Origin: an uncultured virus (IMG/VR IMGVR_UViG_3300047481_002482) | Lineage: Duplodnaviria > Heunggongvirae > Uroviricota > Caudoviricetes | Strand: one strand, 5' to 3' | Virus record (IMG/VR): IMGVR_UViG_3300047481_002482 | Length of the DNA: 64,000 nt | In this document: positions 44,457 through 59,663 of the stretch, in pieces | Layout: every line of letters begins with the position of its first letter | Numbering within the stretch: the first letter of the stretch is position 1 | Position numbers and translations under genes: made by a program | The notes under the pieces: model-generated | Databases searched by the model: none | Told to the model about the DNA's origin: nothing | The model's input: only the letters and a program-made list of their open reading frames with translations

Positions 44457-44616
44457 TGTGCCAGGATGGGTGCGCATACCCATGGAGAGCCAAGCCCAGT
44501 GCGAACGGGCCCAGGCCGGAGTCACAGCCTGGCTCAAGTTTGAATTATTCAAGATAACCACACAATGTCTGCAAGAATCATCCTCGTCATCACCGATAAC
44601 ACGCCCGACCAGATAA
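44410..44616 (+). CDS. Small exported hypothetical protein
   Basis: AAGGAG RBS; hydrophobic N-terminus; two Cys. Confidence 0.55.
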   Translation: MWILLVMSVHINNPSDVPGWVRIPMESQAQCERAQAGVTAWLKFELFKITTQCLQESSSSSPITRPTR

Positions 44617-45569
44617 ACGGCGTGGTAACCACCTTCCGCTGCCTGGAGCCGCAGGCCCGCTCAGATGGCTACGAGATCCAGTACATTCATCCCGGCCTGT
44701 TCTGCCATATCAGTTGTCCGGGCTATCCTGAAGTCCGGCTGGCATGGCCACGCGGCATAGGTCGCATGATACGCGATGTCGCTCCAGATCACATACACAT
44801 TGCTACCGAAGGACCAGTAGGTCTAGCCGCCAGATTATGGCTGGATCGCCACGGATGGCGCTACAACACCTCTTACCATACCCGATTCCCTGAGTTCGTT
44901 AAAGAAATCTATGGCATACCCACAGGCATTACCTATGCCTATCTGCGCTGGTTCCACAAGCACTCGGGTCGAGTGCTCACAACCACCGATACCATGGTAG
45001 AAGAATTACGGGCGCATGGGTTTGCGGGCGACATACGGGCCTGGACCCGCGGTGTGGATCGGGATCATCTACAACCCTCGAGAGATCGAAAGCCGGACCA
45101 CCGTTTCCAGGATCGGCCTCGGGTGTTGTATGTGGGCAGAGTGAGCCGCGAAAAGAATCTCGAATCACTATGCGAACTATATTCGGAGTTCCTGATCGAT
45201 GTCGTGGGTGATGGTCCGCACCGCGCAGAACTAGAGCGGCGATATCCCCGCGTGAACTTCCTGGGATATCGCCGGGGATCGGCCCTGGCTGATTGTTACG
45301 CACAGGCGGATGTGTTCGCTTTCCCTAGCCGGGCAGACACTTTTGGCATCGTAATGATCGAGGCTATGAGCCTGGGCACGCCCGTGGCCGGCTATCCGGT
45401 ACCAGGTCCCTTGGATGTGATCGAGCCGGGTGTTACCGGATATACCGATGAAGATTTAGGGCGTGCTATAAGACTATGCATGGGCCTGGATAGATCTCGG
45501 ATAGAACGGGCCAGCCAGAGATGGACCTGGAATCGTTGTTGGACCATTTTTAGAGACAACCTCATCTAG
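44565..45569 (+). CDS. GT4 glycosyltransferase
   Basis: NGV, HIATEGPVG, YVGRVS.EKN, FPSR.DTFG.V..EA...GTPV. Confidence 0.92.
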   Translation: MSARIILVITDNTPDQINGVVTTFRCLEPQARSDGYEIQYIHPGLFCHISCPGYPEVRLAWPRGIGRMIRDVAPDHIHIATEGPVGLAARLWLDRHGWRYNTSYHTRFPEFVKEIYGIPTGITYAYLRWFHKHSGRVLTTTDTMVEELRAHGFAGDIRAWTRGVDRDHLQPSRDRKPDHRFQDRPRVLYVGRVSREKNLESLCELYSEFLIDVVGDGPHRAELERRYPRVNFLGYRRGSALADCYAQADVFAFPSRADTFGIVMIEAMSLGTPVAGYPVPGPLDVIEPGVTGYTDEDLGRAIRLCMGLDRSRIERASQRWTWNRCWTIFRDNLI

Positions 45570-45608
45570 GTTGACTTGGCCCTTGGGAGATGTTACACTC
45601 TTGTTGTA

Positions 45609-45684
45609 GGGCCGGTAGCTTAAACAGTAAAGCAAGGTACTCATAATGCCTGGAGTGTGGGTGCAAGTCCTACCCGGCCTACCA
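45609..45684 (+). tRNA. tRNA with CAT anticodon (Ile2-like or Met)
   Basis: Cloverleaf GGGCCGG/CCGGCCT, loop CTCATAA, encoded CCA; own TTGACT-N17-TACACT promoter at 45571-45599; atypical T-loop TGCAAGT. Confidence 0.85.
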
Positions 45685-45799
45685 TCCAGTTTTACCAGAT
45701 TTCTAGCATACTCTGTCAAAATCCTGTATAAATATTATTTGCTCAGTGCCCCTTGGGACTGTGCAAATTTTCTTGCTGAACCTAAAGGAGAAAAACGCA

Positions 45800-47739
<1,940 letters not shown>

Positions 47740-47742
47740 ACC

Positions 47743-47769
47743 AAAAAGGGAGGCTGGTCCTCCCTTTTT
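47743..47769 (+). terminator. Intrinsic terminator after groEL
   Basis: AAAAAGGGAGG-ctggt-CCTCCCTTTTT. Confidence 0.88.
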
Positions 47770-47775
47770 GCTGTT

Positions 47776-48138
47776 ATGGAAGCCACCGGACATCTGGATC
47801 TCGATATATGCCAGTGCTGGTGGCTGACGGAAAAAGTGCGCGGCGATGATGTGTATGCACAGAATCTTTATGCGGCCATGTGCAATCAAGCATGGCAGTA
47901 TCAAGATGTATGGACGGTGCTCACAGATCGAACCTGGTCATGCTCTTGGCGATCTGCCGGGGCCATCGTGGCCGACATCCGTGGTGAAGGTGATCACCTG
48001 GATTGGTACTGTTCGGGCAGCCTGGGCAATCCCGACAATCACGGACACACACCAAGACAATACGTGGACGAGGGAACGATCACGGATGAGATCCGGCATG
48101 ATCTGGCCGAAATCGGTTGGATTCCCGTGGTTGACTAA
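47776..48138 (+). CDS. Hypothetical phage protein
   Basis: YAQNLYAAMCN, WSCSWR..G.IVA, DWYCSG. Confidence 0.75.
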   Translation: MEATGHLDLDICQCWWLTEKVRGDDVYAQNLYAAMCNQAWQYQDVWTVLTDRTWSCSWRSAGAIVADIRGEGDHLDWYCSGSLGNPDNHGHTPRQYVDEGTITDEIRHDLAEIGWIPVVD

Positions 48139-48189
48139 TAAATCTCATTGGTGGTATAATGCTGTATATCATTCCGTAAAAGGTTTATC

Positions 48190-48444
48190 ATGCAAAACAA
48201 AAGTGGATTCGTGCGTTGGATGTTCCGTGGTTGGTATCGTGATCTCACACTATGGGGTCTGATCATCGGCTTGATAGGATTCTTGATCATGGCCGTAGAC
48301 GGGCCATTGATCACAGTATGGTTCTTGCTGTCTGTGGGCCTGGCCCTGGTCATGTTTGATCTTGTGTGCAATTTCCTGCGCTTCCAGTATAGTCTCTACA
48401 CCATGGAACGCGATCGTGTGACTCGTGAACTGGAAAGGAAATAA
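48190..48444 (+). CDS. Small membrane protein
   Basis: Two hydrophobic segments; TTGACT-N18-TATAAT promoter upstream. Confidence 0.75.
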   Translation: MQNKSGFVRWMFRGWYRDLTLWGLIIGLIGFLIMAVDGPLITVWFLLSVGLALVMFDLVCNFLRFQYSLYTMERDRVTRELERK

Positions 48445-48445
48445 C

Positions 48446-49405
48446 ATGGCGACCCGGAAACAGAAACAAGAACTCATAGACACCCTGAAATTCACGCCCA
48501 CTCCGGTGCGCATCCAGCTCTACGGTTACGGTGGTGAATGCTATATCGGATCTGTGAGCAGAGAACAGTATGAGTTCTTTAAGGCAAAACGGATCGATAT
48601 AGATCAATACACCCACTCCTGGGATGAAAACGGCATGTGGGATGATGTGCCCACCGAAATGCGGCCCTTTGATCCGGGAAGTCCCTACGACTGCGACGAC
48701 CTGTTCCATGCTAGCGGTGCTACTATGGATAACAGCAGTTATATCTCAGTGGAAGAAGTTGATTCTGGCCAGGAACTGTGGAAATCGGATCTGGACATCG
48801 CCAATTTGGAAGGTCGGGGTGTCACAGTGGATCTCGTGGATGACTGCGACAGCGTGGACTGGCCAGATGGCAAGATAGTGTTCTGGGGCGGCCAGGGCGA
48901 GAAGGGCTGTTTCTTCGACGGTGAAATCACGCTCCGGGCACCGTTCGATCCCAGTAAACTGCGCATCACTTACGGCAACGGCGATGATTGGTTGATCTGT
49001 TCCGGCGTGGAATATGACGGCGAGGACGTGGAGGGCACAGACGGCTATTCCACCACGGGCAAGTGGGCCGAGGGCAAGTTCTGGATCGCAGGTGGTGAAG
49101 AAGTGTACGAGGGTGTGGAGCGCAACGAAGACGGCGACGAAGAAGAGGATGTAGAGGTCTTAGATGGGGAAGAGATGCAGGCACAGGAAGCCATAGACGC
49201 CGGACCCCACATGTGGGAGGGCATCGAGCTCACTCCCTATCGCGATGCGTCTCTAAAGCCAGACATCAAAGGTCAATACGATGTGCTCACAGGCACCTGG
49301 CCATTCCCCCAGCGTGCGGAATGGACCGGTCGGACCTGGAAAGATCTCAATGGCAAAAGGATTGATGTAGCACAATGGCGGGGACTGAGTCAACCCGCCG
49401 AGTAA
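48446..49405 (+). CDS. Acidic hypothetical protein
   Basis: 319 aa, D/E-rich; GYGGE motif. Confidence 0.75.
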   Translation: MATRKQKQELIDTLKFTPTPVRIQLYGYGGECYIGSVSREQYEFFKAKRIDIDQYTHSWDENGMWDDVPTEMRPFDPGSPYDCDDLFHASGATMDNSSYISVEEVDSGQELWKSDLDIANLEGRGVTVDLVDDCDSVDWPDGKIVFWGGQGEKGCFFDGEITLRAPFDPSKLRITYGNGDDWLICSGVEYDGEDVEGTDGYSTTGKWAEGKFWIAGGEEVYEGVERNEDGDEEEDVEVLDGEEMQAQEAIDAGPHMWEGIELTPYRDASLKPDIKGQYDVLTGTWPFPQRAEWTGRTWKDLNGKRIDVAQWRGLSQPAE

Positions 49406-49413
49406 AGAACACG

Positions 49414-49650
49414 GCGCCTAGTCAGCGCCTAGTCCGACCCCGACGATGAAGTGGTGTGACAGCCACGGGTGGTTCCAGTCCAACCGAACTGGCGCTGGCA
49501 ATGCGACAACGGGCCTGTGGCGAGCGGAGGTTCCCACTACCGATTTGGCCTGCTGAGGTTCTCACAGGGGCGATGGCCGCCTGGCGAGAGCTAACCAGGC
49601 GTAGTGGGTCGGAAAGGAAAGTCACCGCGACGGAGCTGTCAGAGCAGTAG
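49414..49650 (+). ncRNA. Candidate ~240-nt structured ncRNA
   Basis: GC-rich intergenic region with nested helices: CCCACTAC/GTAGTGGG, GCCTGG/CCAGGC, GTGGT/GCCAC, CCAGT/ACTGG. Confidence 0.55.
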
Positions 49651-49655
49651 TTCCT

Positions 49656-49743
49656 ATTGTGCTAGGCTATGGCGCCCATAGGAAAAAAATAATGACAATC
49701 CATAGAAAATACATTGACTCTATGATATATACTCGTGTATAGT
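49656..49743 (+). promoter_or_regulatory. OxyR-like operator plus sigma70 promoter of ahpC
   Basis: ATTG-N7-CTAT-N7-ATAG-N8-TAAT-N8-ATAG, then TTGACT-N18-TATAGT. Confidence 0.55.
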
Positions 49744-49794
49744 AGAAACACTGAGACATAGGGTCTCAAAATGTCCAACCAAAAGGAAACCAAT

Positions 49795-50355
49795 ATGAAA
49801 ACAGTAGGTGAAAAGATCGAACCATTCGTGGTCACAGGTGTGAATCCCGGATCCGACAAGTTTTTTGATATCACAGAGCAGAGTTTTGCAGGCAAGTGGA
49901 AGGTCATAGTATTCTACCCCAAAGACTTCACTTTCGTGTGCCCCACTGAGATCGTGGCATACGATCGACTGTTGGCAGATTTCGAGGATCGCGATGCCGT
50001 GTTGCTCACAGGTAGCACAGACAACGAGTTCTGCAAGCTAGGCTGGCAAGCCTCGCACGAAGACCTGAAGAAAATCCGCCACGTCCAGTTCGCTGACACC
50101 CAGCGTGGTGATCTCAGTTTAGTGGATCAACTGGGTGTGTTCTTCGCTCCGGCAGGTGCCGCCCTTCGTGCCACATTCATCATCGATCCCGAAGGCGTGA
50201 TCCAGCATGTCACAGTGAACAACCTCAACGTGGGCCGCAGTGCCGAAGAGACGCTCCGTGTGCTGGATGCTCTCCAGACCGGTGAACTGTGCGAGTGTAA
50301 CCGCCAAGTAGGTGCCGACACCCTGGAAACCAAGAAACCTAAGAAGGCAGCATAA
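49795..50355 (+). CDS. ahpC: Peroxiredoxin AhpC
   Basis: FYPKDFTFVCPTE, RATFIIDP, GR...E.LR.LDALQ...LC. Confidence 0.97.
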   Translation: MKTVGEKIEPFVVTGVNPGSDKFFDITEQSFAGKWKVIVFYPKDFTFVCPTEIVAYDRLLADFEDRDAVLLTGSTDNEFCKLGWQASHEDLKKIRHVQFADTQRGDLSLVDQLGVFFAPAGAALRATFIIDPEGVIQHVTVNNLNVGRSAEETLRVLDALQTGELCECNRQVGADTLETKKPKKAA

Positions 50356-50867
50356 TGCAGTGGGTAGACCAACTCAAAGAAGGCCTGCCCGACTACGCCA
50401 AAGATACTCGCTTGAACATCGATGCAGTGGTCAAGCGCAGTACCTTGGCGGCAGAAGAAGCCGAAGCAGTGGCCTTGGCTGCCGTGTTCGCCACGGGCAA
50501 TACCAAGCTATGGATCTGGATCCAGAGCCAGCTGGCGGATCAGAAGGAAGCTGAGGCCGCGATCACTGCCGCAAGTTTGATGGCCATGAACAATGTGTGG
50601 TATCCCTATGTGGAAATGGCAGAAGATGCCAATCTACAAGGACTGCCTGCGCAACTCAGGATGAATGCCATCGCCACGCATGGTGGGACTACTAAGGCTC
50701 GTTTCGAAGCCTATAGTTTGGCTGCTAGTATCGTAGGCCGGTGCCATTTCTGTGTGAAAGCACACTACGACACCTTGAAGGCAGAAGGTTACACTGTGGA
50801 GCAACTTCGCGACATTGGGCGTATCTCGGCCGTGATGACCGCAGTGAGCCGTGTGATGGCTGGTTGA
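50355..50867 (+). CDS. ahpD: Alkylhydroperoxidase AhpD
   Basis: LPDYAKD..LN, MAMNNVWY, S....CHFCV..H. Confidence 0.95.
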   Translation: MQWVDQLKEGLPDYAKDTRLNIDAVVKRSTLAAEEAEAVALAAVFATGNTKLWIWIQSQLADQKEAEAAITAASLMAMNNVWYPYVEMAEDANLQGLPAQLRMNAIATHGGTTKARFEAYSLAASIVGRCHFCVKAHYDTLKAEGYTVEQLRDIGRISAVMTAVSRVMAG

Positions 50868-50907
50868 TTTTCGTTCCAGGACAGGGTATAAGGTTGACAT
50901 ATTATAT

Positions 50908-51867
50908 CTAGCGAGATAGTTCGCTGGTAAGGTATTCCATAGTTTCTTTCGCTGTGCGGATACGATCTACATATTTGATTGAAGGGCCTGCCATGATCAG
51001 ACCCTGCTCGCCATCGCTGTGTATTCCTGTGTACAAAGCCCGAGAATGATTGGCATCGTCGAACTCATCCATCACACTGTCGTCGTCGAATACCAGAGCA
51101 TTTTGTTTGATTTTGTGTATCCCTGCACGATCGCCAATTTGTTGTACCGATTGTGCTTCAACCATTTTTTGTTTTACAGCCATAGTCAATGGGCTTTCTA
51201 CACAGGCAGCAAACAAAGTACCCACTGCCACTGCAGGAGCACCGGCGTCAATGTAATCTCTGACCTGTTGAGGAGTTCCTATTCCGCCATGAGGAATGGT
51301 GTTGGTGGTAAATTTGATCTGTTCGGCAAAAAATTCATGCACCGGTAATTCACCTTGCCCTCCAGCACTGTCTGAACCTTTGAGGCTCACTGCACTCAAC
51401 ACCTTTATTTTTTCAGTAGAACTTGGTTTCAAGAGCCTTCCGATAACATGACTGAATGATCGTAGATATTTGATCCCCTGGAATATCATCGGATCTTCCA
51501 AAAGCTGACTAGCACATATCTGATCACCTTCCCATCTTGGGAAGATGTCCCAATGACTGATCCTAAGATCCTTGGCCATTTTCAAGAATTCCGGATACAA
51601 AACATATTTGGCGGATATAGGCACCACGCAATCGCTGTCGCCTTTGGATTTGATAAAATCCATGAGTCCAAAATACATAGGATCAAAATCAATTTCACGG
51701 AAAGGGAGTGGACTGTTGCGCAAGGGTCTTGTATGATTAAAGGCGGGGTTAACAGACAAACTGGGAAATCCGCCTGCTTCATGCACAGCGAGAGCCAGTT
51801 TTTTATCACTACCAAGATTCATGCCGGCCAGGACTATGGGCCAATGACTGTTGAAAAGTTTGCTCAT
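50908..51867 (-). CDS. Nitronate monooxygenase/FabK-like flavoenzyme
   Basis: PI..AGM, LA.AV..AGG, GGIG, GA.AV.VGT.F....ES. Confidence 0.75.
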   Translation of the reverse strand: MSKLFNSHWPIVLAGMNLGSDKKLALAVHEAGGFPSLSVNPAFNHTRPLRNSPLPFREIDFDPMYFGLMDFIKSKGDSDCVVPISAKYVLYPEFLKMAKDLRISHWDIFPRWEGDQICASQLLEDPMIFQGIKYLRSFSHVIGRLLKPSSTEKIKVLSAVSLKGSDSAGGQGELPVHEFFAEQIKFTTNTIPHGGIGTPQQVRDYIDAGAPAVAVGTLFAACVESPLTMAVKQKMVEAQSVQQIGDRAGIHKIKQNALVFDDDSVMDEFDDANHSRALYTGIHSDGEQGLIMAGPSIKYVDRIRTAKETMEYLTSELSR

Positions 51868-52005
51868 TTTATTATGCAAATCAATGCTACTTACCATCCA
51901 GATGCTCCGTGCAAAAAATTCAGCCAGTCCTTGGGTCTGGATTTTTTTTCGTGATAGAAAAACAATTATAATTAATCTAACAGTATACTACAAAAGGAAC
52001 TAATT

Positions 52006-53454
52006 GTGAACACTTTTCCCATATTTGATTCATCCGTGGGCTGGATGATATTGGCTATCTATGCTGTAGTCGTGTTTTCATTGACTGTCAAATTTGTGCG
52101 CGGCTATGCAACAGACAAGACCAGTTTTTTATTGGCCAGGAGAGAACTTGGTACACTCTCGGGAGCTCTCAGCATCGCGGCAGTCTGGACCTGGGCACCG
52201 GCCATGTTCATATCTGCGCAGCTGGCTTACCAAAACGGCATAGCTGGCCTATTTTGGTTTACCATCGGCAACTTTCTCACCCTGATAGTGTTTGCCTGGT
52301 TCGCAAGGCGTTTGCGAGAAAACCAACCTCTTGGATTTACTCTTTCAGGGTATGTGAAACACAAATTTGGTGAACGAGTTCAATCGTTGTTTTTGATTGA
52401 AAGCAGTGTGTTAGCAATCTGCGCGGTCGCCATCAATGTGCTGGCTGGCAGCAAGGCCATTGAAACTATCACAGGCATGAGTTATCATGCTGCTAGTGCG
52501 GTATTGACCTTGTTGGCATTGGCATACGTGCTACGGGGTGGACTCAAAGCCTCTGTCGTGACTGAAATTTTCAAAATCACCATACTGTGGATTGGTATTG
52601 CGATTCTGGTGCCATGGGCCTGGAACGCCGGCGGCGGTATCGATTCCGTGATTGCAGGCCTGGGTGGTATCACCGGCCAGGGCAACAGTCTATTTGGGAA
52701 CGATTTCGTGTTAGGAATTTTCATGGGCATGGGTTTGAGTACCGTGCTGGGACATCTTGGTGCGCCTTGGGCAGACAACAGCTTTTATCAAAGAGCTTTC
52801 AGTATCAAGCAAAACAGCATCATTCCAGCATTCATTTTTGGAGCACTAATATTCCTGTTTATTCCTTTGACGATGGGCAGCCTTGGATTTCTGGCAGCTG
52901 GCACCGGACTCGAAATCGCCAAGGATGCAGTGGGTATGACTGCTATCATAGCAGTAGGATCGGTATTGCCAAGCTGGACCTTGATTGTTCTGATATTCAT
53001 GACCTTTGCGGGTTTGGTCTCAGTGATAGACGGACATCTCAGTTCGGCGTCGTCCATCGTTGGACACGATGTCAGGTCAAGATTCCGAGATAAAAATGAC
53101 GAACCCAGCACAGTGACCTGGGCTAGATCGGGCATGATAGCTGTGGCCGCCATTGGCCTGATTATTGCTAATTGGCCTGGAATGACCTTGCTCACGATCT
53201 TTCTGTTCTTCGCAGTAATGCGTGCCACTGTTTGGTGGCCAATGATGTTGCACCTGGCTAGGCCGGCTCTACTAAACGAACGAGGGGTGTTCTGGGGAAT
53301 CCTATTGGCATTTTTGATTGGCATGCCAATATACCTCTTTGGTCAGTTTGTTGGTCAAAAAGATCTTATAATGATTGGTACATTGACAGCGGTGTTTGGT
53401 AGTGCTGCGCTCAGTCTACTCATAACCAAACTAACCAGCAACACAACAAAATGA
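52006..53454 (+). CDS. Sodium:solute symporter family transporter
   Basis: Highly hydrophobic; SIAAVWTWAPA, GG.KASV.T, D..F.QRAF. Confidence 0.85.
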   Translation: MNTFPIFDSSVGWMILAIYAVVVFSLTVKFVRGYATDKTSFLLARRELGTLSGALSIAAVWTWAPAMFISAQLAYQNGIAGLFWFTIGNFLTLIVFAWFARRLRENQPLGFTLSGYVKHKFGERVQSLFLIESSVLAICAVAINVLAGSKAIETITGMSYHAASAVLTLLALAYVLRGGLKASVVTEIFKITILWIGIAILVPWAWNAGGGIDSVIAGLGGITGQGNSLFGNDFVLGIFMGMGLSTVLGHLGAPWADNSFYQRAFSIKQNSIIPAFIFGALIFLFIPLTMGSLGFLAAGTGLEIAKDAVGMTAIIAVGSVLPSWTLIVLIFMTFAGLVSVIDGHLSSASSIVGHDVRSRFRDKNDEPSTVTWARSGMIAVAAIGLIIANWPGMTLLTIFLFFAVMRATVWWPMMLHLARPALLNERGVFWGILLAFLIGMPIYLFGQFVGQKDLIMIGTLTAVFGSAALSLLITKLTSNTTK

Positions 53455-54035
53455 CTACCGACGATCAAACTTTTTTCTGGGGTGGAGACGCCAAATTTGC
53501 AGTGGTGCAGCGCAATAATGGCAGGATCTGGATGATCGATGACAGGATCCCTTACCTATCATCCATACCTGCAGTGTTTCAGAGCAAGATTCCGTTGATG
53601 CTGCTGGATATATCCACTGTCAAAAACAATCGGAACTCAATCATTGACAATAGCTGTTGTTACAACTGGACGATCAAGTTCCAAGATCAACAGGTGCCAG
53701 TGCCCATGAAAAAACTCAGCAGCCGTTGGGTTGATTACGACAAGGTTTATGTTTGTTCCGAAAATTCAGTATTATCAGAGCATGTACATGATGCAGATCC
53801 AATCGAGATCGATCTACGCCGGCAGCTCTTCCTGTATTACAATCTAGTTCGCGATGCATATCATTACTTTGATCAACCCGGCTCCGACCTCGCCACGATC
53901 ATGACAACAATGTGTGAAATCTTCGGATCTAATCTTTACATCCAGGACATATATGAAGCATTGGTCTACCATAGACGAGATATGTTCCACGACCGGGTAC
54001 TCAAATACATAGAAAGGGATCTCAAATATGCATGA
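53451..54035 (+). CDS. Hypothetical protein
   Basis: 194 aa; ATGA overlap. Confidence 0.65.
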   Translation: MTTDDQTFFWGGDAKFAVVQRNNGRIWMIDDRIPYLSSIPAVFQSKIPLMLLDISTVKNNRNSIIDNSCCYNWTIKFQDQQVPVPMKKLSSRWVDYDKVYVCSENSVLSEHVHDADPIEIDLRRQLFLYYNLVRDAYHYFDQPGSDLATIMTTMCEIFGSNLYIQDIYEALVYHRRDMFHDRVLKYIERDLKYA

Positions 54036-55179
54036 CATAGTGTATGTGAACTGGACTCTGATCAAAATGTATGATTGGAACCTGCTGGACAGCCAAGATC
54101 TGCTGCCAGAAGTGCGAAAAGCCCTTGAACTCTCAGATCTGCCCAATCTAGAAGGTTATCTTTTTGATAGACATCGCAAGATCAGTGTTGGCCCTATCAA
54201 ATCGAACAAGACAGCCCCTTATGTCGTGCCACCGTTGCCTGATCGTGAACTGACGTTTTCTCATTGCCTAGACGAAGTCGTGACAGAGATATTGCACACG
54301 CACAAAAATTCTAAGATATATCTGGCTTGGTCTGGGGGCGTAGACAGCACCACATTGGTGTGCGCTATGCTGCGTAATGCCACCAAAGACATGTTGGATC
54401 GTGTCACGATACTTTGTTCTAATGACAGTGTGCTGGAAAATCAATATTTTTTTTATAGGATCATCAAGCCCATGTTGCAGGTGGCCGACATCAATGAATT
54501 CAAGATCGACAGCCAATTTGTTAGCAACGGTTCAATTATGATGGACGGAGAATGTGGCAACCAAATCAATCTTGGATATTGGACATATGATTTGATATCA
54601 TCTGACCAGTGGGACTTGCTCGAGGCCCCGTTCAAAGATGCACCGTTGCACAAAATAATGGGTGTTGATGCTAACAGTCCTGGACTAAAAAACTTACAAG
54701 AAATTCTATTTGACAGCGCAGAATCTGCTCCGGTGGACATAAAAACAGTGTACGATCTGGCCTGGTGGAGCAATTTCAATTTCAAGCTGGACTATGTGAT
54801 GTATCGTAAAGCCATGCCGACTTACACTAAGCATTTGACCCAATCCGAAACCAAAATATTTTTTGAAAAAAACCTGGTGCATGCTTACGCTCATACTTTG
54901 ATGCAACAGTGGGCAATGTCCTCTTTGTTGCAAAGGAGAACATTCGATCGATCAAAGACCGCAAAGTATTTCCAGAAAGACTATATCTATCAGATTGATA
55001 AAAATCCCTACTATTTCCGGTTCAAGCCAGAACAGAGCAGCATGGCAACATACTATACCTGTTATGGTAAAGGAATTCCTACGATGTCGGATCTGTTCGC
55101 GGTGACTGACTCATTCAAGAAACTGTCTTTTTTTAATGCGGAGGACCGCCAAACATTGAAGAAATGGTTATTCGGATAA
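54028..55179 (+). CDS. PP-loop ATP pyrophosphatase (asparagine-synthase-like)
   Basis: WSGGVDST, GECGNQ. Confidence 0.7.
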   Translation: MHDIVYVNWTLIKMYDWNLLDSQDLLPEVRKALELSDLPNLEGYLFDRHRKISVGPIKSNKTAPYVVPPLPDRELTFSHCLDEVVTEILHTHKNSKIYLAWSGGVDSTTLVCAMLRNATKDMLDRVTILCSNDSVLENQYFFYRIIKPMLQVADINEFKIDSQFVSNGSIMMDGECGNQINLGYWTYDLISSDQWDLLEAPFKDAPLHKIMGVDANSPGLKNLQEILFDSAESAPVDIKTVYDLAWWSNFNFKLDYVMYRKAMPTYTKHLTQSETKIFFEKNLVHAYAHTLMQQWAMSSLLQRRTFDRSKTAKYFQKDYIYQIDKNPYYFRFKPEQSSMATYYTCYGKGIPTMSDLFAVTDSFKKLSFFNAEDRQTLKKWLFG

Positions 55180-55204
55180 GGCGTGATAAGTTACAAAAAA
55201 ACAG

Positions 55205-55233
55205 TTGACAAGGTATAAATAAACCTATACAAT
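55205..55233 (+). promoter_or_regulatory. Composite promoter of tRNA operon (sigma70 plus TATAAATA)
   Basis: TTGACA-N17-TACAAT with TATAAATA at 55214-55221. Confidence 0.85.
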
Positions 55234-55240
55234 AGACACT

Positions 55241-55372
55241 ATGATGACTCAACAATTATCACCCATATCGATGCATTTGCCTAAGATGCTAGGTTGCCAG
55301 ACCACATGGTTTGGATCCCTATCAGTCTATCTCCAGGCGATCGAGAACAGTGATAGTGGAGGGTCCGAGTAG
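55241..55372 (+). CDS. Putative leaderless leader peptide, 43 aa (MMTQQLSPISMHLPKMLGCQTTWFGSLSVYLQAIENSDSGGSE)
   Basis: ATG 7 nt after the -10 box; last codons overlap the antiterminator arm. Confidence 0.6.
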   Translation: MMTQQLSPISMHLPKMLGCQTTWFGSLSVYLQAIENSDSGGSE

Positions 55373-55433
55373 ATCAAGTTGTAACTAGATTTTATCTACA
55401 AGGACCCTGGATCGAAAGATACCAGGGTTTTTT
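55360..55433 (+). terminator. Attenuator: terminator 55403-55433 with competing antiterminator 55360-55408
   Basis: GACCCTGG-atcgaaagata-CCAGGGTT-TTTT; AGGGTCC 55360-66 pairs with GGACCCT 55402-08; GTAGAT/ATCTAC extends that helix. Confidence 0.75.
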
Positions 55434-55578
55434 GTTATACGCCAGGCAACGAGGGCCAAGTCAGCGTACAATAAAAAGACGAACGGGCGGAGTCCAGGAT
55501 GAAGTCTCTCTTGTGAGACGAAAGATTGGCAGGCAGGGGATGGCCCTGCGATATGGCAGCCACGAGAGTGGCTCTATA

Positions 55579-55683
55579 TTTGAACACATTACTCTCAGCA
55601 ACAACGAGCATCCGCGGAGAGGACACGATCAGGCTCGATTCGAATCGAGGCTGCACGGTCGCCGACTCAGTAGTGTGTTCAAA
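55579..55683 (+). ncRNA. Candidate ncRNA closed by 15-bp stem within tRNA array
   Basis: TTTGAACACATTACT / AGTAGTGTGTTCAAA; internal CTCGA-TTCGAA-TCGAG hairpin. Confidence 0.5.
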
Positions 55684-55686
55684 CAT

Positions 55687-55775
55687 GGTTCCTGTTCCTC
55701 GCGATGGTCTGTAAAACCGTTGCCTTTAATATGCGGGGTGGCGGCAGTTAGGTTCGATTCCCTGATCATCCACCA
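55687..55775 (+). pseudogene. Degenerate/chimeric tRNA-Tyr(GTA)-like element
   Basis: Anticodon arm GATGGT-CTGTAAA-ACCGTT, GGTTCGATTCC, terminal ACCA, but no acceptor stem or D-arm. Confidence 0.55.
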
Positions 55776-55782
55776 GTTTCAT

Positions 55783-55860
55783 GCACCGTTCGTCTAGCTG
55801 GTCAAGGACATCTCCCTTTCACGGAGAAGATCAGGGGTTCGAATCCCCTACGGTGTACCA
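55783..55860 (+). tRNA. tRNA-Glu(TTC)
   Basis: Full cloverleaf GCACCGT/ACGGTGT, TCTCC-CTTTCAC-GGAGA, CCA. Confidence 0.95.
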
Positions 55861-55866
55861 GTTCCG

Positions 55867-56236
55867 GGTGCCAAAGTGTTCATGGACGCACACTTTTAAA
55901 AAACTGTAAGCTAATTTTTAAGCTCTGCAGGACCCATTTCGTGATAAGTACCTGATGCCGCGCATACATCAACTGCTGACTCTCTTGCCCATGCCTCTGT
56001 TTGTCATAGGATTTATTCTGTCCCTGCTCTCTCCGCAGTCTATCTGCACACAGTTTCCCTATGAAATGACCATAATGTGGGCTGTAATGGCCCTGGCACA
56101 CACATCACCTTGGCTGTTATTCTATCAACAGCACTTTGCCCGGAATGCTTAGACAGCAGTGATAACTGCCCTGTAACACTGCCCAAGAGAGCCTGTCACG
56201 CTGGAAGAAGGGGATCGTTACCCCTTGGTACCGCCA
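55867..56236 (+). pseudogene. tRNA-Asp(GTC) split by ~295-nt insertion (5' part 55867-55894, 3' part 56190-56236)
   Basis: GGTGCCA and D-arm GTGT/GCAC upstream; AGC-CTGTCAC-GCTGG, T-arm and TGGTACC-G-CCA downstream. Confidence 0.8.
55955..56152 (+). CDS. Small two-TM membrane protein inside split tRNA-Asp
   Basis: 65 aa, two hydrophobic stretches; TAAGTA just upstream. Confidence 0.65.
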   Translation: MPRIHQLLTLLPMPLFVIGFILSLLSPQSICTQFPYEMTIMWAVMALAHTSPWLLFYQQHFARNA

Positions 56237-56242
56237 ATGCAA

Positions 56243-56317
56243 GCCCTTGTAGCTCAGCTGGCAGAGCAGCGCACTCGTAATGCGTGGGTCGGGAGTTCGA
56301 TCCTCTCCGGGGCACCA
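56243..56317 (+). tRNA. tRNA-Thr(CGT), acceptor stem one nt short on 3' side
   Basis: GCGCA-CTCGTAA-TGCGT; GGGAG-TTCGATC-CTCTC; CCA. Confidence 0.82.
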
Positions 56318-56322
56318 CACAT

Positions 56323-56397
56323 GTATCGGTAGTGTCAACGGTAGCACGGCAGCCTCCAAATCTGCTTGTGAGGGTTCGAATCCTTCCCGGTACGCCA
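56323..56397 (+). tRNA. tRNA-Trp(CCA)
   Basis: GTATCGG/CCGGTAC, loop CTCCAAA, G73, CCA; C-U mismatch at 31-39. Confidence 0.88.
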
Positions 56398-56411
56398 ATT
56401 GTAGTTGACTT

Positions 56412-56489
56412 AGTGAGGTGGCCGAGTGGTCCAAGGCAACCGGTTGCAACCCGGTAAAATCGTGAGTTCGAATCTCACCCTCACTTCCA
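56412..56489 (+). tRNA. tRNA-Cys(GCA)
   Basis: AGTGAGG/CCTCACT, ACCGG-TTGCAAC-CCGGT, U73, CCA. Confidence 0.95.
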
Positions 56490-56624
56490 TTTTTTTATTA
56501 AGGAGAAGATCATGACCCAGGAAGAACGCTGGCAGTGGATCTAAGACAATGTGCAATGATCTCAAAGCAATTGACATCTCATATGATCAATGCTAGAATG
56601 TTGTTTTAATTATTGGAACATGAA

Positions 56625-56861
56625 ATGGCACGAATATCTAGCGAAATTGCCGCCCAAAAGGTCGGCCGGTATGATCTTATCCTTATCGGTGCTCGCAGGG
56701 CCCGAGAGCTCAATCGCGGATGGCGACCCACCGTATCCGGTAACAACGGCATAGTGGTCACTGCCATCCGCGAGATCGAAGCCGGCACGATCGGCCGAGA
56801 TTATCTCTTGAAGCCACCTAATCTGGATCGCAGAGAGCGACCGCCAGAATCGGATCGATAA
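56625..56861 (+). CDS. rpoZ: RNA polymerase omega subunit homolog
   Basis: MARI.......V.RYDLILI.ARRAREL, V.TAIREI..G. Confidence 0.85.
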   Translation: MARISSEIAAQKVGRYDLILIGARRARELNRGWRPTVSGNNGIVVTAIREIEAGTIGRDYLLKPPNLDRRERPPESDR

Positions 56862-58025: not shown

Positions 58026-58184
58026 ATGAAACTTTGGGAAGCCACCATTAGACAACCAGGACCCGGTACCGCGGAATTCAAGGTCCGGATTGGTGCCGAA
58101 AATGCTGAAGAAGCCCGGAGATTATTACAGCAACTACACGGACCAAGATCGGTACCTTATCTACCTCGACAGGTACCACAGTAA
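58026..58184 (+). CDS. Small hypothetical protein, 52 aa (MKLWEATIRQPG...PRQVPQ), not in track
   Basis: Fills gap after phosphoesterase; EARR helix similar to the 786 ORF. Confidence 0.65.
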   Translation: MKLWEATIRQPGPGTAEFKVRIGAENAEEARRLLQQLHGPRSVPYLPRQVPQ

Positions 58185-58193
58185 TAAATATCA

Positions 58194-58560
58194 GGATTGT
58201 TGTATGAAGCGAGTGGAACAACGGGCAAGACAGGGGTTCGATTCCCCTCTGGTCCACCATAAGGAGACTGACAATGCTAGAAACTCTATTTTGGCTGGCG
58301 ATAGGTGCTTTCATAGGTTGGAATTTCCCCCAACCCGAATTCGCAAAAAGCATCCAGGCTCGAGTGATAGATATGTTCAGGAAAAAATCTTAGTCTCTTT
58401 ATGATGGGCCAGCCATGGTATCGATTGACGGTCTATTACACGAGTGGACAACAGGTCAGGCGAAGGACCTAATCCTAGCAAAACCACAAACGCCAACGAC
58501 AGCGTTTACGCAATGGCCGCTTGAGCCTGCTGAGGGTGGAAGCCCAAGAAACAGAACTTC
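58194..58560 (+). ncRNA. ssrA: Circularly permuted two-piece tmRNA (acceptor piece to 58259; coding piece from 58406; tag ANDSVYAMAA at 58492-58524)
   Basis: GAC-AGGGG-TTCGATT-CCCCT-CTGGTCC-A-CCA precedes GGGCCAG (G3-U70, A73); tag ORF ends AA-stop; outer ends approximate. Confidence 0.92.
58274..58393 (+). CDS. 39-aa membrane peptide within tmRNA intervening sequence
   Basis: AAGGAG RBS; MLETLFWLAIGAFIGWNFPQPEFAKSIQARVIDMFRKKS. Confidence 0.75.
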   Translation: MLETLFWLAIGAFIGWNFPQPEFAKSIQARVIDMFRKKS

Positions 58561-58561
58561 C

Positions 58562-58590
58562 AAAAGCCCGCTACCCGCGGGCTTTTTTTT
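58562..58590 (+). terminator. Intrinsic terminator after tmRNA
   Basis: AAAAGCCCGC-tacc(c)-GCGGGCTTTTTTTT. Confidence 0.9.
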
Positions 58591-58754
58591 GGCCGCGGTA
58601 TGGGCCTACTAAATATCTCAAGCAGCGCCGGTATCATGCCGACGCCGGATCAAATCGACGCTTGACATAGCAATGTCTTTACTGTATTATCAATACAGAA
58701 CGCCGTCCGTAAGCATCTTTGCTAGCACAACTACTCAAGTGATATGGAGACACA

Positions 58755-59663
58755 ATGATCCGTTTCTTTACGATGGTGTTATTATTCGCATTCTTTGTGC
58801 CCTCGCATGCAAAAACCATTCCAATAATCATACCATTCAGCGCAGGGGGCGTGACAGCTTTGACCTGGCAGATCATAGAACCCTATGCTAATCAAAAACT
58901 CAAACAAAACGGTATTGTTCTACGCACAGAGCATCTGCCCGGGGCTGGCGGAGGGATCGGAGCGGCTGCTGCCTTAAGGCGGCAAGAAGGTACCTTAGTT
59001 TTCACATCTACCAGTGTGGCATTGTTGCCATTGATCAATCCTGCTTTTGATTACCAATTAAGTGATTTTTCTCTGGTGAATCATGTGGGCCAATATCCAT
59101 TGGTATTGTTTGCATCGACCCAAATTAACACGTGGCAAAATCTCTTGGTCAAATGCCGTAAAGGCCCAGTTAGTTTTGGCAACAGTGGACATGGCAGCAT
59201 GACGGCGGTGACCGGTGAGGCCATATTTAGATCAATGGGTTGTAAAAGCGAAATGATACCATATAAAAGTGCCAGCCAGGCCATGCCGGATTTGGTCCAA
59301 GGAGTGATAGATACAGTGGTAGATCATCCCACGTTGCCAAACCTGGACCTGGCGCGCACTGAGAGAATCAGACCTATCATGGTGTTATGCCAAAACAGAA
59401 TTTCTGTGCTTCCTCATGTACCTTGTCACGGAGAACTTGCCATAGACACCGATTTCGCTAACTGGCATGTGCTTTTGGCCAATCAACTCATTGATCGTAG
59501 AGATATGGAAATGGTAAAACATGCGGTCAATCAAACTTTGCAAGATCAAGAGGTGCGCAGAGCTCTGCAGAAAATGGGCATGAACAACATAGGCGGCACC
59601 GTACCGACTGACTTTTTATTACGAGAGCAGCATAAATTCAGACAGAGTTTAACAACTCAATGA
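58755..59663 (+). CDS. Tripartite tricarboxylate transporter substrate-binding protein (Bug/TctC)
   Basis: Signal peptide; PFSAGG, PGAGG.IG, G.SG.GS, IPYK......DL..G. Confidence 0.85.
   Translation: MIRFFTMVLLFAFFVPSHAKTIPIIIPFSAGGVTALTWQIIEPYANQKLKQNGIVLRTEHLPGAGGGIGAAAALRRQEGTLVFTSTSVALLPLINPAFDYQLSDFSLVNHVGQYPLVLFASTQINTWQNLLVKCRKGPVSFGNSGHGSMTAVTGEAIFRSMGCKSEMIPYKSASQAMPDLVQGVIDTVVDHPTLPNLDLARTERIRPIMVLCQNRISVLPHVPCHGELAIDTDFANWHVLLANQLIDRRDMEMVKHAVNQTLQDQEVRRALQKMGMNNIGGTVPTDFLLREQHKFRQSLTTQ

Follow-up and report, generated by a model that had tools for sequence, protein, structure and literature searches.

A candidate ribosome-mediated attenuator with a nearly all-amino-acid leader peptide at the head of a phage tRNA array

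We analyzed a 64,000-nucleotide (nt) stretch of DNA, hereafter the window, from an uncultured virus of the class Caudoviricetes (IMG/VR record IMGVR_UViG_3300047481_002482), and within it a compact element of ~200 nt that stands immediately ahead of a tRNA and small-RNA unit. On the plus strand, the element comprises a sigma-70-type promoter, a 43-codon open reading frame (ORF) that we call the leader, a predicted antiterminator hairpin, and an intrinsic terminator that shares one strand with the antiterminator. A conserved structured RNA, termed block A here, follows the terminator directly, and tRNA genes follow block A. An earlier reading of the same DNA (the original prediction) had proposed a leader-peptide attenuator that gates the tRNA array. 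The interpretation that we consider probable is that this element is a ribosome-mediated transcription attenuator that heads the phage tRNA/small-RNA unit and senses general decoding capacity.

Public viral and metagenome contigs were screened for relatives of the element by means of exact DNA patterns that represent separate parts of it: the terminator arm, the 3′ end of the ORF, both arms, the promoter and start only, and later block A only. After removal of chance matches, which included 13 of 24 metagenome pattern matches and locus L005, 19 distinct full-length close homologues and two 5′-cut ones were retained. In a wider scan, the block A pattern matched more than 119 viral contigs among the matches listed, and 80 of these were fetched. 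A covariance model of the switch (R1) located the switch, in more diverged form, just upstream of block A in 50 of the 80 fetched loci, and the number of distinct leader peptides reached 59. Four pattern matches in bacterial and archaeal genomes were not recognized by the switch model and were set aside as chance. In the GenBank phage collection, 242 records matched the tRNA parts only, and none covered at least 80% of the query. Apart from these, the nearest record, G001, is a 41.7-kb fragment that ends inside the gene at 54028–55179, upstream of the promoter, and does not contain the locus. Positions 55200–55790 of the window gave no match to any Rfam 15 covariance model, T-box included, at E values up to 10, save one chance-level match on the opposite strand, and only tRNAs were matched by Rfam in 20 related loci.

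The promoter (TTGACA-N17-TACAAT, 55205–55233, plus strand) lies where the original prediction had placed it, agrees with the consensus at 11 of 12 positions, and is kept in all close homologues. The pattern TTGAC-N18-TANNNT occurs 14 times in the window, always on the plus strand, against 1.67 expected occurrences. Within the promoter spacer lies a conserved TATAAATAAA (55214–55223), and either TATAAATAAA or GAYTAAATAA is present at this place in nearly all leaders. This spacer element resembles the T4 late-promoter box, TATAAATA, which itself occurs three times in the window (0.89 expected); a second, phage-specific promoter may thus overlap the sigma-70-type one. The ATG at 55241 is located 7 nt after the −10 box, and the leader ORF has no Shine–Dalgarno sequence. 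Judged solely by this promoter-to-ATG spacing, the leader mRNA is probably leaderless, with its transcript starting at or next to AUG 55241. When the starts of the 59 distinct leaders were classed by simple patterns, 41 were leaderless-like (−10 box 5–9 nt before the ATG), an A/G-rich Shine–Dalgarno-like stretch was the sole start signal flagged in 5, and 13 were unclassified. The mode of initiation therefore varies while the ORF is retained, which argues for translation of the ORF.

The leader ORF extends from ATG 55241 to 55372 on the plus strand and ends in GGA GGG TCC GAG TAG, in agreement with the original prediction. Its frame is conserved among relatives: frame 0 from the ATG is open in all 19 close homologues, while the +1 frame is open in none and the +2 frame in one, and the probability of an open frame after shuffling of the ORF interior is 0.04–0.17 per sequence. 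The ORFs of the close homologues are 38–47 codons long, every length change is a multiple of three, and the middle of the ORF is hardly alignable between lineages. In the wider set, an ATG-initiated ORF of at least 25 codons that ends inside the switch was present in 49 of 50 homologues, the sole miss being L058, which has only 65 nt of upstream DNA. No homologue of the 43-residue peptide was found in the protein database; gene callers probably skip ORFs this short. The body of the ORF is itself predicted by folding to form a rod-like long-range hairpin (55255–55358, plus strand), with a closing helix UUAUCAC...GUGAUAG and its apex at the Trp codon. This rod was recovered with z-scores of −1.7 to −3.2 in all 13 homologues folded, and its closing helices differ in sequence between lineages. 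It ends just before the antiterminator arm and does not compete with it; that the rod serves as a pause or timing element is speculation.

Two alternative structures are predicted in the RNA 3′ of the ORF body. The antiterminator is built from a 5′ arm, AGGGUCC (55360–55366), which lies within the last codons of the leader; an apical hairpin, P1 (55369–55399), formed by GUAGAU (GTAGAT in the DNA, 55369–55374) and AUCUAC (ATCTAC, 55394–55399); and a 3′ arm, GGACCCU (55402–55408). This last segment is also the 5′ arm of the intrinsic terminator (55402–55436), which consists of the stem ACCCTGGATC/GAT-A-CCAGGGT, a GAAA loop, and a T6GTT tail, these parts spanning 55404–55436. All of these arms lie on the plus strand at the positions given for them by the original prediction, and the UAG stop codon (55370–55372) falls in the 5′ strand of P1. 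A simple terminator scan missed the terminator on account of the bulged A in its stem; the minimum-free-energy (MFE) fold predicts it.

Folding reproduced the proposed exclusivity of the two states. The region 55238–55445 folds with a z-score of −4.28, and none of 200 shuffled sequences folded as well. The MFE structure of this region holds the terminator together with the GUAGAU/AUCUAC hairpin. The terminator state of the window has −26.3 kcal/mol, and the RNA cut before the 3′ arm of the terminator adopts the long antiterminator AGGGUCC-GA-GUAGAU...AUCUAC-AA-GGACCCU (−22.6 to −23.4 kcal/mol). Truncated folds produced the antiterminator in all 19 close homologues, at −17.6 to −23.3 kcal/mol; the terminator hairpins of the homologues have energies of −12.9 to −17.3 kcal/mol. 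When either strand was blocked, the energy difference between the antiterminator state and the terminator state was −2.9 to +2.9 kcal/mol in all 19, with the antiterminator the lower in 8. The energy balance between the two folds is thus retained across diverged sequences.

The pairing itself is retained through sequence change. The plain MAFFT alignment, which covers 17 sequences, has 92.8% of the antiterminator cells paired, against 22–49% when the partners are slid, and 99.2% of the terminator cells paired. In a model-fitted alignment of 18 sequences, five antiterminator pairs (nine cells) have changed on both sides. Extension of the model-fitted alignment to 54 sequences gave 84.4% paired antiterminator cells (26–55% when slid), with both-side changes in 13 of 15 antiterminator pairs, so that the covariation for which the original prediction had asked is found in the relatives. 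These changes amount to 117 cells (shuffles, 39.7 ± 4.8). A covariation score of 0.380 was obtained, compared with 0.163 in shuffles and at most 0.089 with slid partners; 0 of 500 shuffles reached it. Pairs of P1 (columns 24–28 of alignment A7) covary. RNAalifold applied to the whole element recovered P1 and the terminator only, because the body of the ORF aligns poorly.

Individual loci illustrate the same replacement. In L043 and L045, AGGGUCC/GGACCCU is replaced by GGGGUUCUG/CAGAGCCCC; in L050, GUAGAU/AUCUAC is replaced by GUGUAU/AUACAC; and L109 has a perfect 14-bp helix with a quite different inner sequence. L050 also keeps AGGGUCC in another reading frame, its ORF running 8 codons further into the apical hairpin. 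Among the 45 unique 3′ regions of the wider set, the terminator was found in all 45, and in 44 an upstream partner captures the 5′ arm of the terminator when the 3′ arm is absent.

The position of the stop codon relative to these folds is conserved, as the original prediction required. In 18 of 19 close homologues it begins 2–4 nt beyond the 5′ arm of the antiterminator, in L050 14 nt beyond it, and in the wider set 0–28 nt beyond the upstream partner. By eye, the stop always falls within the 5′ half or the apex of the hairpin in the wider-set folds and well short of the terminator 5′ arm, by 29 nt in the window. A ribosome covers ~12–15 nt on either side. From the stop position and this footprint, a terminating ribosome should open the antiterminator and leave the terminator untouched, and would thereby free the terminator to form.

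The leader peptide of the window contains 19 amino-acid types, lacking only Arg, encoded by 32 distinct codons among its 43, with one Trp (55307–55309) and one Cys. This composition, and the absence of a run of any one amino acid, had been noted in the original prediction and was confirmed; no run of any codon occurs in the leaders. Within the close set, 14 of 19 leaders contain all 20 amino-acid types and the other 5 contain 19. Across the 59 distinct leaders (32–66 residues), 31 contain all 20 types, where 1.95 would be expected from the composition of the window proteome and 5.31 from uniform usage, and at most 16 were reached in 200,000 simulations. Another 17 of the 59 contain 19 types, and all 59 exceed the expected mean. 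The idea of a general sensor, which the original prediction had graded as weak on codon diversity alone, is much strengthened by this count.

Several comparisons bear on how far such a content could arise by chance. At 38–47 residues, the chance of holding all 20 types is 0.7–3.9% with the window proteome composition. Only 1.2% of the 43-residue windows drawn from the long ORFs of the window reach 20 types, and among the 109 other ATG ORFs of 38–47 codons in the window, one has 20 types and two have 19. When one representative was taken per 50%-identity cluster, ~17 of 34 had all 20. With conserved residues held fixed, the chance of all 20 is 0.9–5.3% per lineage representative, a test in which the representatives chosen for two lineages with mixed counts have all 20. 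Exactly one Trp is present in 54 of the 59 leaders, and the position of the single Cys varies by lineage; a moving Cys and a single Trp point to selection for presence rather than to a structural role.

Directly 3′ of the terminator lies block A (55438–55550, plus strand), a conserved structured RNA of ~115 nt with no promoter before it. It is composed of a hairpin with an AACGAGG loop, a single-stranded AAACGGGCGGA, an internal loop GGAUGAA/..GAAAGAU, and a GC-rich hairpin, and 14 of its 18 predicted pairs show compensatory changes. Block A was seen in the window and in L002, L004, L006, L009, L026, L031, L038, L039, L044–L047, and L050; it has no Rfam match. Its internal loop (GGAUGAA/AGUAAGA) resembles a bulged-G motif. 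A hammerhead-like reading of GGAUGA...GAAA in block A was rejected: by eye, the core C3/U4 positions are unmet, and no Rfam match supports it. Similarly, a TACAAT at 55467–55472 was considered as a −10 box; it is lost in L046 and L047 and probably belongs to block A instead.

Among the 14 full-length close loci examined, the terminator is followed next either by block A or, in 8 loci, by a gene for a protein of 52–59 residues followed by block A. In these 8 relatives, the small gene has a ribosome-binding site and starts 10–35 nt after the U-tract. There is no room for a separate promoter before block A or the small gene, and both would therefore need read-through of the terminator. The small proteins form a family with the shared pattern ..VL...L..LI..KI.RAR..; they are encoded at L031:968–1135, L038:2121–2294, L006:2771–2926, and L043:208–384 (all on the minus strand), and at L030:3027–3197, L039:2731–2886, L050:2767–2940, and L045:2708–2905. 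The family is absent from the window and has no Pfam match at E values up to 0.001. The proteins were also considered as RNA polymerase omega subunits, an assignment dropped for want of a Pfam match and for poor alignment to the Rpb6-like protein of the window.

The tRNA genes of the array are tRNA-Glu-UUC (55783–55860), tRNA-Thr-CGU (56242–56316), tRNA-Trp-CCA (56323–56397), and tRNA-Cys-GCA (56412–56489), all on the plus strand. Same-strand tRNA genes lie downstream in every close locus with enough sequence, at a gap of 106 nt in L004 and 345 nt in the window. In the wider loci, same-strand tRNAs were found in 38 of 46 (within the at most 1.15 kb available), and no opposite-strand tRNA was found.

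These observations can be combined into a proposed mechanism, in which we infer where transcription starts, that the leader is translated, which way the switch works, and what the physiological signal is. Host RNA polymerase would start at the strong promoter, and the transcript, beginning at or next to AUG 55241, would be translated as a leaderless mRNA. The RNA 3′ of the ORF would then choose between two nearly equal folds, the antiterminator hairpin and the intrinsic terminator, both of which need GGACCCU. The antiterminator is transcribed first and would be the default fold, letting polymerase proceed through block A to the tRNA genes. If a ribosome follows polymerase closely as far as the stop codon, it would cover the 5′ strand of the antiterminator, so that the terminator forms and transcription ends. 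Slow or absent decoding of the leader would consequently give more transcription of the tRNA unit, and with (nearly) every amino acid present in the leader, a shortage of any one aminoacyl-tRNA family could delay the ribosome. As the original prediction had suggested, a ribosome at the stop would thus force termination, stalling would give read-through, and the signal would be tRNA depletion.

Several results weigh against this interpretation or qualify it. The trp/his type of geometry invoked by the original prediction holds for the terminator, the strand-sharing antiterminator, and the stop position, but a 1:2 anti-antiterminator is not supported: many MFE folds pair GACUC (nt 6–10) with the GGGUC in the arm, but the fraction of shuffled 5′ ends that do at least as well is 0.12–0.92. 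Without a supported anti-antiterminator, an untranslated leader would read through too, so that the element would report translation capacity in general. The covariation figures come from alignments fitted to the structure and from related sequences, and are to be read as supportive rather than as probabilities. Thirty of the 80 block A loci have no match to the switch model. The all-20 content is not universal, with 28 of the 59 leaders holding 16–19 types. Codon tuning of the leader to the phage tRNAs was no better than synonymous resampling (P = 0.26–1.0, six loci); the pangram signal, as we call the all-amino-acid content, sits at the amino-acid level. The ratio of nonsynonymous to synonymous substitution rates (dN/dS) is only 0.23–0.98, and third-position bias is mild (21, 25, and 31 variable columns of 46 at the three codon positions). 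Because the body of the ORF is itself structured, constraints on the RNA may explain part of the conservation of the peptide.

A further counterpoint concerns the tRNA genes. In 11 of 17 close and 13 of 38 wider relatives, the stretch from the terminator to the first tRNA contains a sigma-70-like promoter (TTGACC-N17-19-TAnnnT), which often overlaps the end of block A, and in those phages the tRNAs could be transcribed independently of the switch. Since block A or the small gene is always first after the terminator, a translation-coupled switch could gate only this adjoining unit, that is, block A and in some phages the protein of 52–59 residues, with the tRNAs transcribed mainly from downstream promoters of their own. 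We regard this as unlikely. The window, L031, L044, L004, L030, and L050 lack a promoter of this kind, as do 25 of the 38 wider loci. In the window, TTGAC-N18-TANNNT does not occur between 55233 and 56571, where the best candidate is a 9/12 match at 55553–55580, and in the window, L031, and L044 the site of the downstream promoter is replaced by a hairpin, AGCCAC...GUGGCU. An independent tRNA promoter, which the original prediction had named among the findings that would refute it, is absent from the lineage of the window and present in part of its relatives. In L004, the first tRNA starts 106 nt after the terminator; read-through transcripts may continue from block A into the tRNAs; and an all-amino-acid leader suits tRNA supply better than it suits an RNA of unassigned role.

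Two further explanations do without a ribosome that sets the fold. The ORF could encode a small protein with its own function, the terminator ending the gene or being tuned by another factor, such as a protein or the peptide itself, and the position of the ribosome being irrelevant to read-through. Such a protein would account for the retained amino-acid motifs (the single Trp of most leaders, and NSD/DR..PE-like and GGSE-like endings), for a dN/dS below 1, and for an ORF with its own promoter and terminator. We nevertheless find it unlikely, given that a simple terminator would not preserve, by covarying changes, a rival helix of equal stability, that the C-terminal residues vary widely in the family while the helix is kept (in L050 even with the arm in another frame), and that genes or RNAs without promoters stand directly behind the terminator. 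The leader peptide also has no protein homologue on record, and we know of no structural reason for a protein of 38–47 residues to hold all 20 amino acids. Very improbable, in our estimate, is a non-coding riboregulator or small RNA in which the choice of fold is set by a ligand, tRNA, or protein bound to the 5′ rod, the ORF remaining untranslated. The structure of the ORF body, which exceeds that of shuffles in every homologue folded, the low z-score of the full element, and long-range helices that differ in sequence between lineages would all agree with it, and the terminated product would resemble a small RNA. An untranslated RNA would not be expected to keep one frame open across close and wider homologues while the other frames are closed, with length changes only in multiples of three, and an amino-acid pangram would be meaningless in it; the start, too, sits at the predicted +1 or behind Shine–Dalgarno-like stretches, and Rfam gave no match, T-box included.

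The proposed attenuator is best placed by comparison with known systems. In the enterobacterial leader-peptide attenuators trpL, hisL, pheL, leuL, thrL, and ilvL, the position of the ribosome decides the fold. The phage element shares with them a short leader ORF that ends at the antiterminator, an intrinsic terminator, and an overlapping antiterminator. Unlike them, it has nearly all 20 amino acids in place of a codon run for a single one, lacks a supported 1:2 anti-antiterminator, is phage-borne, is probably read from a leaderless mRNA, and has tRNA/small-RNA genes rather than biosynthetic enzymes as its cargo.

Its logic is closest to that of upstream-ORF attenuators that respond to general ribosome stalling, among them bmrB-bmrCD, vmlR, and lmo0919; in these, a stall that is not tied to one amino acid favors read-through into genes that relieve translation stress. 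Two more are toiL-topAI (PMC12121999) and the mycobacterial whiB7 leader (PMC10274678). Switches of this group differ from the phage element in that several use Rho or specific arrest sites, and in that their cargo consists of resistance or stress proteins. To our knowledge, there is no report of a member of this group that contains every amino acid or that governs tRNA genes. Mycobacterial leaderless polycysteine short ORFs are presented in a preprint as cysteine-responsive attenuators (bioRxiv 10.1101/834739). They have in common with the phage leader a leaderless short ORF that is the first cistron and acts as a sensor for downstream expression; they differ by sensing one amino acid through a Cys tract, whereas the phage leader has one Cys among other residues and an explicit intrinsic terminator/antiterminator. 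T-box riboswitches also choose between antiterminator and terminator and report tRNA charging, which they do by direct tRNA binding and with no ORF; the phage element differs from these in having an ORF and no T-box match in Rfam.

Why phages carry tRNA arrays and how the expression of these tRNAs is timed are open questions. If the proposed reading is true, the tRNA genes would be switched up as decoding falters, for example during host tRNA decay or attack by an anticodon nuclease. A general decoding sensor would suit the loss of tRNA during infection or a host defense that targets tRNA. The element would also extend classical attenuation from one amino acid and one pathway to all amino acids and the whole tRNA pool; a literature search, within the portions of the publications open to it, returned none on attenuation of phage tRNA genes or on an all-amino-acid leader. 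A broader proposition, to which we give even chances, is that many large phages, possibly of several host groups, have such a pangram leader: a minimal ORF in which each amino acid is sampled a single time and which is coupled to a balanced antiterminator/terminator. It would serve as a universal monitor of decoding capacity, with feedback on the tRNA supply of the phage and on the widespread, co-transcribed block A. An element of this kind would be the first known attenuator of tRNA genes and would answer directly, at the molecular level, how phages detect the depletion of host tRNA or defenses that cleave tRNA.

Further elements lie among or beside the tRNA genes. At 55579–55683 stands a small-RNA-like unit with a long closing stem, UUUGAACACAUUACU...AGUAGUGUGUUCAAA. 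Like units with the stem CAUAUUGAAGCACAUU...AGUGUGUUUCAAUAUGG lie downstream in L006 and L038, interleaved with tRNAs and in several copies per array. The stems were identified by eye; these units could be processing stems or a stable RNA family. A tRNA-Tyr-like element with an anticodon-type loop CUGUAAA, a GGUUCGAUUCC T-loop, and a 3′ CCACCA occupies 55686–55776 and is also present in L031 and L045. It was called by neither ARAGORN nor the Rfam tRNA model, and relatives carry long tRNA-Tyr genes at its place. Right 3′ of tRNA-Cys, at 56495–56545, a T-run is followed by AAGGAG, a 10-codon ORF (ATG ACC CAG GAA GAA CGC TGG CAG TGG ATC TAA), and the next promoter. Directly 3′ of the tRNA block, at 56571–56861, a consensus promoter (TTGACA-17-TAGAAT with TG) precedes the gene for an 82-residue protein with an RNA polymerase Rpb6/omega domain (E = 1.2e-9).

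The window as a whole reads like part of a very large freshwater phage. Almost all of its genes lie on the plus strand, and they encode a family-B DNA polymerase, radical-SAM enzymes, an AdoHcy hydrolase, GroEL, a MoxR-type ATPase, and the Rpb6/omega-like protein. Five tRNA genes are present in total, together with a two-piece transfer-messenger RNA (58143–58615), which is permuted, of the betaproteobacterial type, and carries the tag ANDSVYAMAA. Cell-like genes occupy 44565–55179 and 58755–59663 and include those for GroEL, an AhpC/TSA peroxiredoxin, a CMD-family protein, a sodium:solute symporter, a TctC-family receptor, and glycosyltransferases; among them, a nitronate-monooxygenase-like protein is encoded on the minus strand.

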